This document shows positions 7,935 through 27,865 of a stretch of DNA of 36,303 bases, in pieces; within the stretch, counting starts at the first letter, position 1; every line of letters begins with the position of its first letter. Both the position numbers and the translations under genes were made by a program. Source of the stretch: a virus; UHGV virus genome UHGV-1321070, one strand, 5' to 3'. Under the pieces are notes generated by a model. It had not been told where the DNA came from. It ran no database searches and saw only the letters and a program-made list of their open reading frames with translations.

Positions 7935-8306
7935 TTACAAACGACTACCTGAAATAACTCGTTGGTTGATTTCGTTAATACGATCCTGTGCACGCGCCAT
8001 CTCGTGACTGTGAGCCATGGCGATCTGTAGTAACTGGATTCCCGGTGCGAAACGTCCGTTCTCTAATTTCATGGCCAGTCCCTCTTCAATAAGGGTATTA
8101 AGTGCTCGATTGATATTCGCCGGGGACTCCCCCAGGGCTGATGCCAGTTCACCGTTAGAAACACCGTTCAGAGCATGACCGCGTAGAGCTTTGAGTACAC
8201 GTAGGATGCGGGTCCCAGAACTGGAAATATTTACTTTACTCATGTCACATTTCCATTTTTGCAATATGTGATAACCTGTTGCATATGTGGAAAATTTATG
8301 CCGCAT
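7935..8306 (-). CDS. Winged-helix DNA-binding protein (MarR/IclR-like HTH)
   Basis: 123 aa; segment GTRILRVLKALRGHALNGVSNGELASALGESPANINRALNTLIEEGL is a typical wHTH. Overlaps the ner-like gene by 11 bp; an internal start (MSKVNISS) is possible. Confidence 0.45.
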   Translation of the reverse strand: MRHKFSTYATGYHILQKWKCDMSKVNISSSGTRILRVLKALRGHALNGVSNGELASALGESPANINRALNTLIEEGLAMKLENGRFAPGIQLLQIAMAHSHEMARAQDRINEINQRVISGSRL

Positions 8307-8484
8307 TTGACGTGGGTTTTAATCCCAGTTTTACGGCAATTTCATGGGCTTTGCCGTAACGAGCTTTGGTCTGTCCATTGAGAACACGATAGACCTCATT
8401 GCGGCTGTAGCCGTGTTCTTCGGCCCAGCGGGTAAACGTGATACCACGCTGACGGAAGAGATTTTTAACTTGTTCGGAAGTCAT
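8296..8484 (-). CDS. Ner/Cro-like small DNA-binding regulator (first gene of early operon)
   Basis: 62 aa HTH protein (RWAEEHGYSRNEVYRVLNG) at the head of the leftward early operon, divergent from the repressor gene: the position Ner occupies in Mu. Confidence 0.55.
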   Translation of the reverse strand: MTSEQVKNLFRQRGITFTRWAEEHGYSRNEVYRVLNGQTKARYGKAHEIAVKLGLKPTSNAA

Positions 8485-8534
8485 TGTTGTCTCCTTTGTT
8501 GATGCAATGATGTTTGTTTTATATGTGATAGATT

Positions 8535-8996
8535 ATGAGAACTATTGTTCTCATTGTCAATGAGGTTTATGTGAATTTTGATTCTCTTTGCGCGTCGCGG
8601 TTCAAAGCTGAGCGTTCGCGGTTATCACTCAAGCAGGCTGAAGTAGCAGCCCTTTGTGGCGTTTCAAGAGAAATGTGGGGGAAATATGAACGAGGGGTTG
8701 CTGTTCCCGGAGGTGAGTTACTTGCAGCCTTTGCAAGAATTGGGGCCAATGTACAGTTCATTCTTACCGGGGAGTCATCAGGTATAACTTTATCACGTGA
8801 TGAAATGGAGTTACTGCAGCACTACCGGCAGGCACCATTACAGGTCAAAGGTTCAGTTTTGTCGGCCTTGACTACTGGCTCCTCCAGAGAACGGGCGGAA
8901 CAGGTTATTCATGGAGATGTTCTGGGGAATGTTATCAAAGGTAACGTAACCATAGGAACAGGTGGAATAATGAACAAAAATACCAAGAGAAGATGA
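8535..8996 (+). CDS. XRE-family HTH repressor (candidate immunity repressor c)
   Basis: HTH LSLKQAEVAALCGVSREMWGKYERG; divergent from the early operon. The true start may be the GTG at 8571, which follows a GAGG RBS and would place the palindrome upstream of the gene. Confidence 0.65.
   Translation: MRTIVLIVNEVYVNFDSLCASRFKAERSRLSLKQAEVAALCGVSREMWGKYERGVAVPGGELLAAFARIGANVQFILTGESSGITLSRDEMELLQHYRQAPLQVKGSVLSALTTGSSRERAEQVIHGDVLGNVIKGNVTIGTGGIMNKNTKRR
8537..8552. promoter_or_regulatory. Candidate operator: perfect palindrome GAGAACTATTGTTCTC
   Basis: 6-bp arms GAGAAC/GTTCTC around TATT in the divergent ner-like / repressor control region. Confidence 0.45.
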
Positions 8997-9979
8997 GTAA
9001 AGAGAAGCAAACAGTTAACGGGGATGTGGGTAACGTTGTCAGCGGTGATGTTACCATTCATAACTATTCTGCTGACATACTTCCTTCGGCCCAGCAACCA
9101 ATTTCGTTGCTGCAAAAACGCGATTTACACAGATTGATGGATGAATTGGTTGATCTGGGGGAAAGTAAGCGCGAGCTATGGATGACGATCCACACGAAAC
9201 TTAATACCAAAACAGTTAATGAAATGACTGCGGCTGATTATCATGGTGCGGTTGAGATCCTTCAGAGATATGCACAACAGATCCAGAATATGAAGGACTG
9301 TAATCTTCTGGTCAGCAAAATAATGGCGCTTACTGACCCTGGGTATCGTCTTGACCGTGACAGATACTGTCTGAAGCATTTCGGTACAACCCATCTTAAA
9401 GGCCTAGACAAAGAGCAGTTGCAGGCTGTGTTTGGTTATTTTGATGATCTGCTGAATATTCGTGATGAGAGTAAAACTCTATCACCTCCATCGGAAAGCG
9501 GTGCAAAATCAGTCGCAACTGTACCAACCAGAAGCCGGAAGCCTCATGTAGTAGTGTTGGGGGGAGTGTTAGTTCTTGTAGCAATATTTTTCGTGGGAAT
9601 GATTGTGTTCGCTGGTAAATGGGGAAATGCCAAAGCAGTAGCTTCTACTGAAACCAGCGTTTTTAACATTAAAACCAACGATAAAATAATAGAAGATTCC
9701 ATCCCCGCACTGCGCAGCATGTTTCCAGGGTTAAATAAGTACTCAGATGATTTCCATTCGGTTTCAAGCTACAAGCAAAAAACGGGCTGGCATACCCTTA
9801 AATTTACTGTATCAGCAAAGGCATCCGTCCCCGAAAATTATAGTGTTAAGGGCAAGGTTTGTTACATTAACATAAGCCCTGATGGTAGTTATGCTCGGGT
9901 TTTGACTGCTCCATGTCGTTCACTGCTACTTGATCAGCAAAGCACTCCTGACAGTAAATACCGTTTTATTCTTAAATAG
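8993..9979 (+). CDS. Single-pass membrane protein of unknown function (328 aa), translationally coupled to the repressor
   Basis: Start ATG overlaps the repressor stop (ATGA). One TM helix (VVVLGGVLVLVAIFFVGMIVFAG) separates a ~185-aa N-terminal domain from a ~120-aa C-terminal domain; visibly AT-richer than the backbone. Confidence 0.55.
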   Translation: MSKEKQTVNGDVGNVVSGDVTIHNYSADILPSAQQPISLLQKRDLHRLMDELVDLGESKRELWMTIHTKLNTKTVNEMTAADYHGAVEILQRYAQQIQNMKDCNLLVSKIMALTDPGYRLDRDRYCLKHFGTTHLKGLDKEQLQAVFGYFDDLLNIRDESKTLSPPSESGAKSVATVPTRSRKPHVVVLGGVLVLVAIFFVGMIVFAGKWGNAKAVASTETSVFNIKTNDKIIEDSIPALRSMFPGLNKYSDDFHSVSSYKQKTGWHTLKFTVSAKASVPENYSVKGKVCYINISPDGSYARVLTAPCRSLLLDQQSTPDSKYRFILK

Positions 9980-10060
9980 AAAATAACAGCTGAATTACCA
10001 TGGGATCAGAAAAAAGACAAAGGCGGCATCATGCTGCGTTCTGAAATTTTAATGTAAAAG

Positions 10061-10651
10061 GTGATGAACATGGCAGGGATTCAGGTTATCGCAGGAAGTT
10101 TTCCTAAAGGGTGGGCAAGCATGGGGTTCGGTACCATCGTGTTTGCCAAAAAACCAAAACAAGGCTTTCCTGAAAATATTGTATTAAATCTGAAAGAAGA
10201 GCTTTTATCGATTGAACTTGCGGATAGTGAAGAGGAAAGCCGTATAGGTAAGGCGGCAGGCGCAGGTTTGCTTGGTGGATTAATCTTTGGTGGTGCAGGG
10301 TTGGTCATTGGAGGTTTGCTTGGTGCGGCGGACAAGACGAAAAAAACTATCACTTTTAAGGCAATGTTTACGGGAAATAGGTTACTTCTGGCTAAAACAG
10401 ATTCAAAAACTTTTGTAAAACTTCAGTCAATTGCTGCTGATAATGCCCATAACGCATCTGTAATCAACATGAAGCAAACTAACAGGGGCGATGTTTCTTC
10501 TCGTAAACAACTAACAGAAAATCCACAGCAGCAAGACTTACCTGCGCCCGCTACAACAGTAAAAATGACTGCCAAAGATAAGTTAGAATCGGCTCTTGGG
10601 CTGGGAATCATCGTTATAGCTGTTTGGGCAATAATACACTTCTTTTTTTAG
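10061..10651 (+). CDS. Glycine-zipper membrane protein of unknown function (196 aa)
   Basis: GKAAGAGLLGGLIFGGAGLVIGGLLGAA glycine-zipper segment plus a C-terminal TM anchor (LGLGIIVIAVWAIIHFFF); same strand as the repressor; followed by a terminator. Confidence 0.5.
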   Translation: MMNMAGIQVIAGSFPKGWASMGFGTIVFAKKPKQGFPENIVLNLKEELLSIELADSEEESRIGKAAGAGLLGGLIFGGAGLVIGGLLGAADKTKKTITFKAMFTGNRLLLAKTDSKTFVKLQSIAADNAHNASVINMKQTNRGDVSSRKQLTENPQQQDLPAPATTVKMTAKDKLESALGLGIIVIAVWAIIHFFF

Positions 10652-10653
10652 TG

Positions 10654-10678
10654 CAGCCCTTCAGGGCTGTTTCTGTTC
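10654..10678 (+). terminator. Rho-independent terminator-like hairpin between convergent genes
   Basis: CAGCCC-TTCA-GGGCTG stem-loop followed by TTTCTGTT; sits 3 nt after the TAG of the 196-aa gene and just past the stop of the convergent P-loop gene. Confidence 0.55.
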
Positions 10679-10688
10679 AGGAGGTATC

Positions 10689-11165
10689 TTAAGGATTATC
10701 CGGGGCGTTTTCCTGTTTGCCGTACTTCGGAGACGAACAACATTCTGTTGGCTGACCGGTGAGTTTACGTAACTCCTTCATGAGCAGCTCCTGATCGTAA
10801 ACTGTCATCAGTGCCGCAATGGTGGCATGCAGTGCATCGGGCAGTATCCAGGGTTGCCGGCCCGTGGGGCATATAACATCCAGCAGCTCATTCGTCCGAC
10901 AGATACGCTCCTCGCCGTATGACAACAGGCCCTGTCCCGTGTATTCCTCCAGCCTGATCACTGTGCCACCCCGTGGCTTCTGCCAGGTCGTCAGATCTTC
11001 GCCATTCATACGGCGCTCATTCTCCACGTCAGCAGCATCGACAATGACGCTGTTTCCGAGTTCCTGTTTCACCATCTCTTCTATCCGCGCCAGTACGTAA
11101 CTTTTACCGCTGCCCACAGGACCGGACACAGTGACAGTGATGACCGGATTCAGTGTGTGCGTCAT
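10689..11165 (-). CDS. Small P-loop NTPase of unknown function (158 aa)
   Basis: Walker A GPVGSGKS near the N-terminus and an acidic stretch (VIVDAADVE) that could be Walker B; convergent with the two preceding genes, divergent from the lysis operon. Confidence 0.5.
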   Translation of the reverse strand: MTHTLNPVITVTVSGPVGSGKSYVLARIEEMVKQELGNSVIVDAADVENERRMNGEDLTTWQKPRGGTVIRLEEYTGQGLLSYGEERICRTNELLDVICPTGRQPWILPDALHATIAALMTVYDQELLMKELRKLTGQPTECCSSPKYGKQENAPDNP

Positions 11166-11223
11166 ATCGTATTCTCCTCTGTGAATAATTCATCGTTTAT
11201 CCTGCACATCCCGTATCCCCGGC

Positions 11224-11246
11224 TCTCTTAACGCGCTTTAAAATCC
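11224..11246 (+). promoter_or_regulatory. Conserved late-promoter motif, copy 1 (upstream of lysis operon)
   Basis: CTCTCTTAACGCGCTTTAAAATC, matching the consensus CTYCTTAA-N4-CTTTAAWATC also found at 24608 and 30698; about 50 bp upstream of the 11296 start. Confidence 0.5.
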
Positions 11247-11295
11247 TTCGCGCCCTGTATTTGTGATGCTGTCTCCACCAGATAAGGAGACACAC

Positions 11296-11646
11296 ATGAA
11301 AAACCTGAAAAAATTCATTCCCCCTGTTAAAAAACCTCGCCTCAGCGGCTGGCTGCTGACCTCAGTGCTGTTGCTGGGCACCATCGCTCTGGTCTCACCA
11401 CAGCAGCTGCCTGTTGTGATCTACAAGCTGGCACTCATCACGCTGGCAGCAGTGCTGGGTTACTGGCTTGACCGTTCGCTCTTCCCCAAAGCCCGTCCCG
11501 GTCAGTACCTGAAACATGACGACAGGCTGATGGCTGAAGGGCGTTTCCCGGTACAGACCGGCCTTCACCTGGTGTTTTCTGCTGCGTTAATCCGCCGTGC
11601 ACTGATTGTTGCAGCGGTCTGCCTGGCTGTTGCGATGGGGCTTTAA
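11296..11646 (+). CDS. Putative holin / lysis membrane protein
   Basis: Start moved to the ATG preceded by AAGGAGA; about 116 aa with three hydrophobic helices; immediately precedes the endolysin. Confidence 0.45.
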   Translation: MKNLKKFIPPVKKPRLSGWLLTSVLLLGTIALVSPQQLPVVIYKLALITLAAVLGYWLDRSLFPKARPGQYLKHDDRLMAEGRFPVQTGLHLVFSAALIRRALIVAAVCLAVAMGL

Positions 11647-24681: not shown

Positions 24682-25017
24682 ATGTCACAGACCCCATCCG
24701 ATACTTTTAAATTGTCTTATCCCTTCACCACTGCTGCAGGCACCAGAATTGAGCAGGTTGAACTGAAACGCCTGACGGTAAAAGACCTGAAGCAGGTGCG
24801 CAAAATCAGCAAAAACCCGGCAGACTGGGACGAACCGCTGATTGCCCGCAGTACTGGTCTTCTCCCGGAAGATCTCGACAATATGGATCTGGCTGATTAC
24901 CTGCAGTTACAGAAACGATTTCAGCTCATCACGGGGATGGGTGAGAGCAACCAGGGCGCTGACGCAGGCGCAGGGGCTGCTGGCGAGATGGTTCCGGTTT
25001 CAGCCGGGGGAGATTGA
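24682..25017 (+). CDS. Tail assembly chaperone (upstream frame)
   Basis: 111 aa acidic protein between tube and tape measure; overlapped by a +1-frame ORF (24842..25099). Confidence 0.55.
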   Translation: MSQTPSDTFKLSYPFTTAAGTRIEQVELKRLTVKDLKQVRKISKNPADWDEPLIARSTGLLPEDLDNMDLADYLQLQKRFQLITGMGESNQGADAGAGAAGEMVPVSAGGD

Positions 25018-25099
25018 TGCCCTCGATACTGACGATCTGGAGATGTGGCTGGAGCAGGCTGAAGAGCAAATCAAAAGCGAGTACGGCGACAAATCATAG
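24842..25099 (+). other. +1-frame ORF overlapping the chaperone 3' end (candidate frameshift extension)
   Basis: The +1 frame stays open to 25099 while the 0 frame ends at 25017; a run of five G (GCC GGG GGA) sits just before the 0-frame stop. Confidence 0.35.
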
Positions 25100-25104
25100 T
25101 ACAG

Positions 25105-25125
25105 ACAGCCGCCAGTAGCGGCTGT
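25105..25125 (+). other. Stem-loop ACAGCCGC-cagta-GCGGCTGT upstream of the tape-measure gene
   Basis: 8-bp perfect stem with 5-nt loop in the 75-bp gap before 25175; no clear U-tract. Confidence 0.35.
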
Positions 25126-25174
25126 TCTGCGTTATCCCCTCACGTCTTTTCACCTTCCCCGGAGGTTAACCACT

Positions 25175-27865
25175 ATGTCGGGACAGTTTTCAGTCGGCGT
25201 TGTTATCGGCGGGATGATTGGCAGCACATTCCGTTCTGCAATGAGCGGTACCCGCCGTGCGCTTGATTCCCTGAGCGATACCTCACGCCGCCTGCAGGAA
25301 CGTCAGAACGCTTTAACCCGTGCAACAGAACGTTATGGTCAACTGGGTTCTTCCCGGATGCAGCATCTCAACAGCGAGCTGCTGCGGGTAAGCCGCACCA
25401 TGGAGCAAATTGAGCGCCAGCAGCGCCGTCTGTCAGCGGCATCCGCTACCAGTGATGCGCTGAAAGCTAACCGCATGGCGCTGTATGGTCAGGGGATTGA
25501 AGCGTATAGCATGGCACAGACTGTTTATCATACGGTTTCCCCTGCCGTTCAGCAGTCCATGTCTTTTCAGGACAAAATGATTGATATGTCGATCACCGCA
25601 AAATATGACAATAAAACGCGGGATGCACTTGCCGGACAGATAAAAGGCTGGGCGCTTAAATACAATCAGTATCAGGATGAGCTGCAGGAGGCGGTGGGTT
25701 CACTCATCAGCGACAATATTGATAATGTGTCAGATATCGGTTTTCTGATGCCGGATATTGCCCGCGCGGCAACGGCAACACGCACGTCTGCTCAGGACTG
25801 GGCAAAAGTGGCCGCAGTCTGGCAAAACTCCCTGAAAGGTGCGGCCAGAGATTTTGGTGCCGTTCAGAATATTATGGCTTATGCCGGTGACCAGGGGTCA
25901 TTTGAAATCCCGGATCAGGTCAAGTGGATGCAGTCCCTGGCCCCAATGATGGCGGGTATTGCCAGTGGAAAAGAGGCTGTTGCTGAAATCGGGGCCAGTC
26001 TCCAGATAGCAAAAATCGGTGCAGGTTCCACCGACGAGGCAGCCAATAATTTTAAAAACTTTCTTACCAAAATTTTTGCCCGCGATACTCAGAAACAGTT
26101 TGCTGATCTGGGTATTGATTTGCAGGGATCTATTGCGAGTTATAAGGCTGCGGGGATCTCTCCGATTGAAGGGATGTTGAGTGTTATAGAACGTTACCTC
26201 AATGCCAAAAGCCCCGAAGCGCTGGCCGACTTCAAATCCGCCATGAAAATAAAGAATGATACGGCAAGAGATGAGGCACTTCAGGCTCTGGCGAAAAACT
26301 TTGGTCTGGGTGATATGTTCGCGGATATGCAGGTCATGGCATTTATCCGCCCGATGCTGGCCAACATGGACAGATATCGCGAGATCCGCGCCGGTGCTCT
26401 CAGGGCTGCGGATAACGATTTGCTTGCCAGTGCTTATGATCAGCGGCTGAAATCTCCCCTTGAAGCCACTAAAGCACTTATGGTCAGCAGTCACGATCTG
26501 GCAATTACGCTGGGCGATCAATTAGCTCCATCTTTTATTTCTCTGACTCAGGACTTGCTCCCACTCATTCAGGGGACAAAACACTGGGTAGCGACTCACC
26601 CGCAATTTGTCAGTGGGGCTTTTAAGCTCATCAGTGCGCTCCTTGCGATTAAGATAGCGACTATTGGTCTCAAACTGGGGCTGAATCTCCTTATTTCCCC
26701 CTTTGTAAGTGTCTGGAAAAATGCTGTTTTACTTCGGGCCAACTGGCTTCGTCTGTCGCTCGCACTGGGGCAAGGCGGTAAGCTCCGCTGGCTGGTGACC
26801 GGATTTAGCGCCGTCGCCAGAGGAGCCAGAACACTGAGTGGCGTGCTCTCCGGGGGGCTGGTTCGCGGAATTATGCTCGCCGGACGTGCTGTTCTCTGGA
26901 TTGGACGTGCGCTGATGATGAATCCCATCGGTCTCGTTATCACCGCTGTCGCGGCAGCAGCTTACCTTATCTACCGCAACTGGGGGGCAGTCAGTGGCTG
27001 GTTTAAACAGCGCTGGGCTGACATTCAGGAAGCCTTTAACGGCGGCATTGTGGGAATTGGTAAGTTGCTGATTAACTGGTCGCCGGCAGGCCTGCTCTAT
27101 AAAGCCTTTGCGGCTGCGCTGAAATATTTCGGCGTTGCTCTGCCGGCAAAGTTCACCGACTTCGGTGGTCATCTTATCGACGGTCTGATTAACGGTATCA
27201 AAAACAAATGGGAGTCGCTCAAATCCAGTGTAACCGGAATGGGTGACAGCATCAGTGGCTGGTTCAGCGAAAAGCTGGGCATTCATTCGCCGAGCCGCGT
27301 GTTTATGGGCTTTGGTGACAATATCGCGCAGGGGGCCGCCATTGGCCTGCAGCGGACCACTCCGCTTGCAGCTCTGGCCGGGCAGCGAATGGCCAGTGAA
27401 CTGCTCCCCAAAATGCCCGTGAGCATTCAGGGGCCAGAAATACGGGATAACACTTCAGGTGTTCGCTTCAGTATGCCGTTGCCCGATATCAATGGGTTTA
27501 TGTCGTCTGCTAAAAATGCGATCGGAGCCGTAATCAATAGTTTGTCTTCCATGCCCGCTATTCCGCTCTCCACCCGGGCATCGATTTTACCAGGGCAACG
27601 TCTGGCAAATGAGATGACACCGGATGTTCCCCGTATCCCCTCGCCTGAAATCCTGGCTGCCGGATATTCAGGCCGTGGTGCAGCTGCAACCGGCGGTGGA
27701 ACGTCTGGTGGTATCCAGGTCAGCTTTAATCCTCAGTTTTTCCTCAATGGCAGGGAAACCACAGCGCCTGCCGGACTGACTGGCGCCCTGAATATGAGCC
27801 TGCATGAGCTGGAAAAAATGCTGGAGCGTCTGCTGGCTCAGAAACAACGTAAGGAGTACCGCTGA
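25175..27865 (+). CDS. Tail tape measure protein
   Basis: 896 aa, helical N-terminal half and hydrophobic central segments, located after the tail chaperone. Confidence 0.8.
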   Translation: MSGQFSVGVVIGGMIGSTFRSAMSGTRRALDSLSDTSRRLQERQNALTRATERYGQLGSSRMQHLNSELLRVSRTMEQIERQQRRLSAASATSDALKANRMALYGQGIEAYSMAQTVYHTVSPAVQQSMSFQDKMIDMSITAKYDNKTRDALAGQIKGWALKYNQYQDELQEAVGSLISDNIDNVSDIGFLMPDIARAATATRTSAQDWAKVAAVWQNSLKGAARDFGAVQNIMAYAGDQGSFEIPDQVKWMQSLAPMMAGIASGKEAVAEIGASLQIAKIGAGSTDEAANNFKNFLTKIFARDTQKQFADLGIDLQGSIASYKAAGISPIEGMLSVIERYLNAKSPEALADFKSAMKIKNDTARDEALQALAKNFGLGDMFADMQVMAFIRPMLANMDRYREIRAGALRAADNDLLASAYDQRLKSPLEATKALMVSSHDLAITLGDQLAPSFISLTQDLLPLIQGTKHWVATHPQFVSGAFKLISALLAIKIATIGLKLGLNLLISPFVSVWKNAVLLRANWLRLSLALGQGGKLRWLVTGFSAVARGARTLSGVLSGGLVRGIMLAGRAVLWIGRALMMNPIGLVITAVAAAAYLIYRNWGAVSGWFKQRWADIQEAFNGGIVGIGKLLINWSPAGLLYKAFAAALKYFGVALPAKFTDFGGHLIDGLINGIKNKWESLKSSVTGMGDSISGWFSEKLGIHSPSRVFMGFGDNIAQGAAIGLQRTTPLAALAGQRMASELLPKMPVSIQGPEIRDNTSGVRFSMPLPDINGFMSSAKNAIGAVINSLSSMPAIPLSTRASILPGQRLANEMTPDVPRIPSPEILAAGYSGRGAAATGGGTSGGIQVSFNPQFFLNGRETTAPAGLTGALNMSLHELEKMLERLLAQKQRKEYR

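Follow-up and report, generated by a model that had tools for sequence, protein, structure and literature searches.

What does a small, glycine-rich membrane protein do at the end of a prophage repressor cassette? The question is raised by an open reading frame (ORF) at positions 10061-10651 (+ strand) of UHGV virus genome UHGV-1321070, a stretch of 36,303 nucleotides (nt) that is called the window here. A preliminary description of this ORF, made from the letters of the sequence, proposed a 196-amino-acid (aa) product with a 28-residue glycine zipper and a C-terminal hydrophobic anchor, which might form membrane channels and act as a toxic or exclusion effector. The role that we consider most likely, at a probability of roughly 0.4, is superinfection exclusion at the inner membrane of the lysogen in which the protein would be expressed, in a manner like that of gp15 of phage HK97. 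The exclusion part of the earlier proposal fits the genomic setting, i.e., the gene is the last of a repressor cassette and its relatives lie at moron sites, whereas the channel or toxin part has no direct support. Because the relatives occupy such sites, including the slot of HK97 gp15, the product is read as a lysogen-expressed accessory membrane protein encoded by a single gene. We infer the exclusion role from position and analogy, and likewise the oligomerisation, the cytoplasmic monotopic topology and the co-transcription with the repressor.

The ORF is present in the ORF list of the window, but the GTG start of the 196-aa form is probably not the one used. The GTG at 10061 falls within a Shine-Dalgarno-like sequence, AAAGGTGA (10057..10064, + strand, by sequence reading), which is placed 5 nt 5' of the ATG at 10070. 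The RefSeq entry WP_000907412.1, a 193-aa 'hypothetical protein', starts at this ATG, the PHROG profile begins to match at residue 4 of the 196-aa form, and the N-terminus 'MA.I.V.AGDF' is kept across relatives in the alignments. For these reasons, translation most likely begins at ATG 10070, and the coding sequence (10070..10651, + strand) gives 193 aa and a stop codon.

A family could be assigned, contrary to what was first stated. By profile matching, the protein is placed in PHROG 12025 and, through precomputed matches of its homologues, in Pfam PF27000, which is named 'PH_gly_zipper' in the protein index. The phrog_12025 match spans the full length (E=2.4e-128; residues 4-196 of the 196-aa form against profile positions 1-193 of 193), and its annotation is unknown function. 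The PF27000.1 matches were found on P0002 and P0003 (97% identical), on P0012 (a 96% identical N-terminal fragment), on P0008 (71%, marked 'weak') and on P0009 (66%). PF27000 and PHROG 12025 are thus catalogued families with no function recorded. PF27000 and PHROGs 12025 and 20920 have the same fold, i.e., one like the pleckstrin homology (PH) domain, with an inserted zipper. Compared with the rest of PF27000, the enterobacterial subfamily, to which the window protein belongs, is extended by a variable linker and a C-terminal tail-anchor helix, and G-G replaces the central G-P of the zipper.

The window is an Escherichia coli BcepMu-like prophage, i.e., Mu-like and transposable. Homology to other BcepMu-like prophages ends at about 8536 and restarts at about 10701. 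The exchangeable cassette between these breaks (8536..10700) has a GC content of 40-47%, against 55-60% in the backbone. Its first gene (8535..8996, + strand) encodes a 153-aa repressor-like protein with a Cro/CI-type helix-turn-helix (HTH) domain (HTH_31, E=4.7e-07; HTH_3), and is divergent from the ner-like and IclR-HTH early genes. The second gene (8993..9979, + strand) encodes a 328-aa protein, and its start overlaps the repressor stop (ATGA), so that the two are translationally coupled. The PH_gly_zipper gene is the third and last. An intrinsic-terminator-like hairpin, GCAGCCC-TTCA-GGGCTG followed by TTTCTGTT (10653..10680, + strand), begins 2 nt past its stop codon and is the sole terminator-like site within 8200-11400. 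The gene probably uses the promoter of the repressor operon and, because it is the last gene of a repressor cassette that ends in a terminator, its product is most likely synthesised along with the repressor in the lysogen. It is an additional gene, inserted between genes that adjoin each other in related phages, and its base composition is deviant, as is expected of a moron.

The distribution of the cassette among E. coli genomes was patchy. Flanking DNA was found in 605 of 5,426 complete genomes and the PH_gly_zipper gene in 102 (approximately 2%), in every case as one chromosomal copy, with an identity of at least 99% in 97 of them. Clinical isolates of ST131 and O25b are among the carriers. 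The sole isolated phage with DNA in common with the region was Escherichia phage PhiKM, a Bcepmuvirus; neither PhiKM nor most of the 605 flank-sharing genomes have a counterpart of the cassette, and other cargo, e.g., a Dam-type methylase, is held in this slot by PhiKM and a Citrobacter-type prophage. The Citrobacter/Enterobacteriaceae orthologue is 71% identical, is listed in 364 contig-index blocks and lies in a BcepMu-like prophage, directly 3' of a different, CI-like repressor, and the 328-aa gene is absent there. Because the DNA homology of this prophage to the window is limited to 10056-10452 and the backbone flanks, the PH_gly_zipper gene was kept while the repressor and the neighbour were exchanged. 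A two-gene system with the 328-aa protein was rejected on the basis of this orthologue and of neighbour clustering, in which no universal partner family was found over 129 non-redundant loci.

Relatives were collected by an exhaustive hidden Markov model search of 1.84 billion cluster representatives (E<=1e-3). The 221 relatives have in common a module of approximately 120 aa that includes the zipper, with the approximate consensus M..IKVHAGDF.KG ... E.ATEE.VK..GGT.GWG.AGA.LLGP.GLLAGLLLGGK.KEVTF.A.F.DGRK.LATTDSKT...Q.A.F. About one third of the family is this module alone, with no tail or further transmembrane (TM) segment, and about one third adds a C-terminal hydrophobic TM helix like that of the window protein. 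Domain scans of members revealed fusions to SHOCT (12 of 139 members), to zinc ribbons in a few cases and to an FtsK-gamma DNA-binding domain in one, and no enzymatic or toxin domain. The FtsK-gamma member, P0050 (205 aa), joins the PH_gly_zipper module to a winged-helix DNA-binding domain (E=3.6e-19), which hints that some members bring DNA to the membrane or bind DNA there. In a scan of one genome per species, members were found in Proteobacteria, Campylobacterota, Planctomycetota, Chloroflexota, Acidobacteriota, Gemmatimonadota, Bacillota and candidate phyla.

The genomic positions of these relatives are classical moron sites, i.e., the repressor operon, the junction between the chaperone and tape-measure genes, the prophage end and places beside integrases. 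In a lambdoid phage, a leftward Cro gene is followed by rightward genes for CI (HTH and S24), a 130-aa protein and PH_gly_zipper. In two other Mu-like elements, a 40.7-kb BcepMu-like contig and an Acinetobacter prophage, the gene ends the plus-strand block 5' of the lysis genes; in the latter it stands directly before a GH108 endolysin. A pattern scan of IMG/VR gave 148 viral contigs with a family member. Among 64 non-redundant loci of this set, an HTH plus Peptidase_S24 repressor gene was placed at most two genes upstream in eight, and 15 were adjacent to the tape-measure gene, 11 immediately upstream and four antisense between the chaperone and the tape measure. One GH108 and one GTA-holin (gene transfer agent) neighbour were also found. 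Over the 129 loci, a tape-measure gene was at most two genes away in 30, five of which were antisense.

Some copies are lone opposite-strand genes in phage contigs, and others belong to islands that also contain Dnd-like genes, recombinases, integrases and GmrSD. On two JGI metagenome contigs (L012 and L013), a stand-alone 116-aa member was found as a lone opposite-strand gene beside a Dnd-like module, which comprises PAPS_reduct, SMC_N/AAA_23, a dnd-associated protein and an SNF2 helicase; on L012, recombinase genes lie on the other side. This setting is defence-island-like.

In isolated phages, the family is rare. The window protein itself had no tblastn match among isolated phages and plasmids, and the sole family member in 50,697 isolated phage genomes was that of Geobacillus phage phiOH2 (L181, AB823818.1 355-702, 115 aa), which follows a holin and an amidase at the genome end. 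This rarity fits an accessory gene of temperate phages. The phiOH2 protein is labelled 'small-conductance mechanosensitive channel' in GenBank. The label is probably mistaken and owed to the glycine-rich segment, because the protein has only 115 aa and no MscS domain was found on the other family members that were scanned. The scan in question searched for the MS_channel Pfam domain on the window protein and ten diverse family members and detected none.

The copies beside lysis genes raise a very unlikely alternative, in which the protein serves the lysis of the prophage itself as a holin accessory, an antiholin or a timing factor. Its place just 5' of the lysis genes in three Mu-like phages (the window, where the holin starts at 11263, the 40.7-kb contig and the Acinetobacter prophage) would agree with this, as would the holin and amidase beside the phiOH2 copy and the GH108 and GTA-holin neighbours in the IMG/VR set. 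However, the window copy is separated from the holin gene by the terminator and an opposite-strand gene, and that gene already encodes a canonical Holin_2-3 holin (11263-11646, E=1.5e-41). Most family contexts are not lysis cassettes, and no holin family was matched by the window protein in Pfam.

The junction of the chaperone and tape-measure genes is another recurrent site. In many Bacillota, the PBSX-like tail module has the order sheath, tube, XkdN-like chaperone, PH_gly_zipper, tape measure and LysM protein. The recurrence of this order across many genera, together with the 30 of 129 loci near a tape-measure gene, would suit a component of the tail or of ejection, either a virion or assembly protein or a membrane-insertion helper in DNA delivery, of which the window copy would be a displaced paralogue. 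We regard this as highly improbable. The gene is antisense to the tail operon in five loci, and other copies lie in repressor operons. In two PBSX-like loci (L153 and L151), terminator-like hairpins stand directly 3' of the gene, before the tape measure, and in one of them another hairpin follows the chaperone, so that the gene is bracketed. In the window, the chaperone and tape-measure genes (24682-27865) are 14.5 kb away from the PH_gly_zipper gene and nothing is inserted there. Given the antisense and terminator-flanked copies, a structural tail protein is unlikely.

The closest model for superinfection exclusion by such a gene is found at the same junction. Gene 15 of HK97, the first described moron, is located between the tail chaperone and tape-measure genes, and its product is a small inner-membrane protein of the YebO family that is expressed from the prophage and, in a manner that depends on the tail, keeps the genomes of superinfecting phages from entering (PMC3594210). 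Many PH_gly_zipper genes occupy this very slot and, like gp15, would encode small inner-membrane moron proteins. The two were compared by description, and they differ in that gp15 is a small YebO-like protein, whereas PH_gly_zipper has a PH-like fold with an inserted zipper. In addition, the window copy lies in a repressor cassette and not in a tail operon.

For a place beside the repressor, other models exist. In phage lambda, rexA and rexB lie 3' of the repressor gene in the arrangement cI-rexA-rexB. PH_gly_zipper differs from lambda Rex in being a single-gene system, in giving no RexA or RexB match and in a predicted topology that is not that of a polytopic channel. The likeness, i.e., a membrane protein gene linked to a prophage repressor, with a putative linkage in the case of the window gene, extends to the transposable Pseudomonas phage Fc02, in which a small exclusion gene is carried on the repressor transcript (PMC9936078).

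How the protein would meet the membrane depends on the zipper and on the fold around it. The 28-residue glycine-zipper run of the preliminary description was confirmed. It is GKAAGAGLLGGLIFGGAGLVIGGLLGAA, residues 60-87 of the 193-aa form (nt 10247-10330), with 10 glycines in 28 residues and five overlapping GxxxG motifs. In a shuffling control, at least five GxxxG motifs were obtained in 920 of 20,000 shuffles (4.6%). The composition by itself is mildly unusual, and conservation is what makes the zipper significant. In an alignment of 73 sequences, with members down to approximately 22% identity, G69 and G81 were invariant and G61, G64, G66, G74, G77, G85 and G86 were each at least 90% conserved. 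The central proline of the zipper is at least 90% conserved in the family and is glycine in the subfamily of the window protein. The charged residues D10, E53, D102 and R104 are conserved as well.

This is a real gene, and purifying selection acts on it. With the 71%-identical Citrobacter-type orthologue as reference, the ratio of nonsynonymous to synonymous substitution (dN/dS) was 0.11 overall, 0.07 in the zipper, 0.05 in the PH and zipper part (residues 1-130) and 0.37 in the linker and TM segment. The zipper DNA contains two copies of a 14-bp direct repeat, AGGTTTGCTTGGTG (10264-10277 and 10312-10325, + strand), 48 bp apart. In public contigs, variants with in-frame deletions in the zipper were observed, P0007 lacking 16 aa and P0006 lacking 11 aa, and the repeats coincide with the ends of the deletion in P0007. 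These variants could be slippage products or assembly artefacts.

The fold was modelled with AlphaFold2 (AF2). A first model from a 6-sequence alignment had a predicted local distance difference test (pLDDT) score of 35 and was replaced by a model from the 73-sequence alignment, with a mean pLDDT of 75.5. A value of 90 or more was reached by 75 residues, almost all of which belong to the PH core. The model is a PH-like beta-sandwich with the glycine zipper inserted between strands 5 and 6. Strands were assigned at residues 2-9, 14-19, 22-25, 37-40 and 45-50, followed by the zipper region (54-92), strands at 93-100 and 104-111, and a long helix from residue 112. The N-terminal half of the sandwich (residues 1-53, strands 1-5; 10070..10228, + strand) carries the conserved AG(D/S)F motif. 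The insertion (residues 54-92; 10229..10345, + strand) consists of an acidic lead-in, SEEESR, the zipper and a basic exit, DKTKKT. The C-terminal half (residues 93-143; 10346..10498, + strand) contains strands 6-7, the capping helix and the motifs VTF, DGR and TD.KT, and the block of residues 91-130 has a pLDDT of 90-95.

A variable polar linker (approximately residues 144-173; 10499..10588, + strand) that differs between orthologues (pLDDT 52-61) leads to the C-terminal hydrophobic helix (residues 174-193; 10589..10648, + strand), which was recognized by hydropathy and appears in the model as a helix at 168-192. The last 19-20 residues reach the C-terminus and average 2.5 on the Kyte-Doolittle scale, a strong hydrophobicity that agrees with the anchor that had been described. 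The linker and this tail-anchor helix are predicted to give the window protein a second membrane attachment.

The topological consequences lean partly on general knowledge of membrane proteins. Because the zipper is inserted between two strands of one folded domain, both of its ends are expected on one membrane side. Neither a hydrophobic signal segment nor a lipobox cysteine is present in the N-terminus, MAGIQVIAGSFPKG. Since it is a conserved beta-strand, strand 1 of the fold, and not a signal-like segment, the side of the PH domain would be the cytoplasm. The zipper has a length of 27-28 residues between charged flanks and a conserved central G-P (G-G in the window protein). With this length, the acidic lead-in, the basic exit and a helix-breaking centre, it is best read as a re-entrant hairpin of two helices of approximately 12-13 residues that would dip into one leaflet, not as a spanning pair. 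The charges of the flanks, acidic on the N-side and basic on the C-side, had suggested two passes with an N-out/C-out topology; this was rejected, as both flanks are strands of one PH-like domain in the model. The part of the preliminary description that concerns a membrane-associated glycine-zipper protein with a C-terminal anchor is supported. Compared with known bacterial and eukaryotic PH domains, the protein matches no bPH Pfam family, and its membrane contact would be a hydrophobic inserted hairpin instead of a basic lipid-binding loop.

This topology bears on the toxic effector that had been proposed. In such a scheme of abortive infection, the PH-like domain would sense a phage cue, and the zippers and the C-terminal helix would form a pore, depolarise the membrane and kill the cell before phage release. 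Glycine zippers do occur in pore formers and membrane-damaging toxins, e.g., reportedly in a Streptococcus suis type VII secretion system effector. The place 3' of the repressor parallels lambda cI-rexA-rexB, the TM helix added in about one third of the family could contribute to a pore, some members lie in defence-rich islands beside Dnd-like genes or GmrSD, and the single-gene architecture is compatible with a self-contained sensor and effector. Nevertheless, this is an unlikely explanation. Both ends of the zipper belong to one domain, predicted to be cytoplasmic, and its arms of approximately 12-13 residues are too short for a pore that spans the bilayer, while one third of the family has no further TM segment at all. 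The operon is probably expressed in the lysogen, yet an antitoxin-like or antidote partner is not conserved over the 129 loci, the fusions to SHOCT, zinc ribbons and FtsK-gamma include no toxin or enzyme, and no RexB or other abortive infection (Abi) model of PADLOC was matched.

Scans of the window protein with local copies of Pfam, NCBIfam and PADLOC revealed no significant match, and toxin-antitoxin, holin, MscS, RexB and known-defence identities were rejected as no profile matched. A profile search for glycine-zipper families had been recommended with the preliminary description; for those of the 2TM lipoprotein type, there was no match in Pfam at E<=1 to Rick_17kDa_Anti, Gly-zipper_Omp, Gly-zipper_YMGG or Gly-zipper_OmpA. 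The sole Pfam result at E<=1 was C19orf12-like PF20721 (14.8 bits, E=0.025), a weak local match over zipper residues 66-89. That family also has a glycine zipper beside a soluble domain, but the score is below its 30-bit cut-off and covers only 24 low-complexity residues, so the protein is not a member. Membership in the glycine-zipper 2TM lipoproteins, C19orf12, holins, MscS and Rex was in each case ruled out by profile or feature tests. A profile search of PDB sequences gave nothing at E<0.3, and a BFVD fold search nothing significant.

Outer-membrane lipoproteins of the SlyB/YfgH type offer a comparison in architecture. Like PH_gly_zipper, they combine a short glycine-zipper hairpin with a beta-sandwich domain, and SlyB is described in a preprint (bioRxiv 10.64898/2025.12.22.696046, citing Janssens et al.) as forming 11-mer rings around lipid nanodomains. 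The differences are that PH_gly_zipper has no lipobox or signal peptide and is predicted at the cytoplasmic face of the inner membrane, and that its zipper is inside the beta-sandwich, whereas in SlyB/YfgH the zipper precedes it. From this analogy, a lysogenic-conversion factor can be conceived that would form SlyB-like rings on the cytoplasmic leaflet, corral nanodomains of lipid or protein and improve tolerance of envelope stress, with no direct anti-phage role. The SHOCT fusions without enzymatic partners, the members in non-phage chromosomal contexts and the occurrence in both diderm and monoderm phyla would agree with it. We consider it rather unlikely, as the marked preference of the family for phage genomes and moron sites suggests a phage-related selective advantage, the idea of rings is purely by analogy, and no sequence relation was found to the 2TM lipoproteins (Pfam, E<=1) or to any solved structure.

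Superinfection exclusion thus remains the preferred role, and its mechanism may be pictured as follows. The lysogen would make the PH_gly_zipper protein along with the repressor. The PH-like beta-sandwich would stay in the cytoplasm, while the glycine-zipper hairpin would reach into the inner membrane at its cytoplasmic leaflet. The proteins may self-associate through the zipper on the inner membrane face, and the lysogen would be protected by a disturbance of DNA entry or of the tape-measure-dependent channel formation of the superinfecting phage. A bolder version, which we consider quite unlikely, would make PH_gly_zipper proteins pan-bacterial single-gene phage exclusion factors. SlyB-like rings on the cytoplasmic leaflet would jam or cap the conduit for DNA that tape-measure or ejection proteins of the incoming phage form, the insertion at the junction would reflect a link to the tape measure, and the FtsK-gamma or zinc-ribbon tails would grip DNA.

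Several points weigh against exclusion. It is not obvious how a protein on the cytoplasmic face would block an injection step on the periplasmic side, and the regular place of the gene in Bacillota, within PBSX-like tail modules, could instead point to a role in the tail. Housekeeping genes adjoin some members, and some stand in non-phage chromosomal contexts. The PADLOC defence models, including RexA/RexB and Abi, gave zero matches at E<=1 for the window protein, NCBIfam gave none, and literature searches on the PH_gly_zipper family and on phage proteins with glycine zippers revealed nothing about the family or the function of its members. No convincing + strand promoter for the cassette operon was found, and the case for co-transcription with the repressor consists of gene order and the single terminator. 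The zipper region was modelled at a pLDDT of approximately 50, and we infer its hairpin geometry and its depth in the membrane.

The remaining genes of the window agree with its assignment as a BcepMu-like prophage. On the minus strand, genes for Mor, Gam, an ExeA-like protein, an rve transposase, DUF3102, an IclR-HTH protein and a ner-like protein were identified. The plus strand encodes the Holin_2-3 holin, an SLT endolysin, spanin-like proteins, Mu-type portal and F proteins, sheath, tube, tail chaperone and tape measure. In E. coli AR_0015 (L001 1-820), the Mor end of the prophage adjoins grxA and ybjM, and the left end of the window is therefore close to the junction of prophage and chromosome.

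In the cassette, the 328-aa protein has an N-terminal region like Flk (NF007987, E=2.9e-12, far below the cut-off), one TM helix at approximately residues 186-210 and a C-terminal domain of approximately 115 aa. It matches phrog_10002 and is related to phrog_6521, 'membrane protein, moron', and it may be a second, independent membrane factor expressed in the lysogen. The best sigma-70-like promoter of the region was found at 8532-8560 on the minus strand (TTGACA-17-CATAAT, 11/12) and points left toward the ner-like gene. Its sequence extends over the opening codons of the repressor ORF as annotated, so either the start assigned to the repressor (8535) may be wrong or the two units may overlap as an operator region. 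On the right side of the cassette, a 3'-truncated P-loop gene (10689..11165, - strand; phrog_3787) encodes 158 aa, 157 of which align to a 242-aa PhiKM protein, and is named 'ABC transporter ATPase' in RefSeq. Its break coincides with the right cassette junction at about 10700.

Taken by itself, the window protein is taken to be an inner-membrane protein from a prophage moron and is nothing strongly surprising; if exclusion is not confirmed, it is an ordinary hypothetical membrane protein of a prophage with a better annotation. The PH_gly_zipper family is broad, compact and structurally unusual, reaching 221 representative clusters, 148 IMG/VR contigs and prophages across many phyla, and is worth a modest follow-up. 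If exclusion is true, an uncharacterised family would become a compact single-gene anti-phage module that is missing from PADLOC-DB v2.0.0 (2023), and its unusual design, in which a loop of the PH-like fold holds a membrane hairpin, could show how monotopic proteins of the cytoplasmic face hinder the entry of phage DNA.

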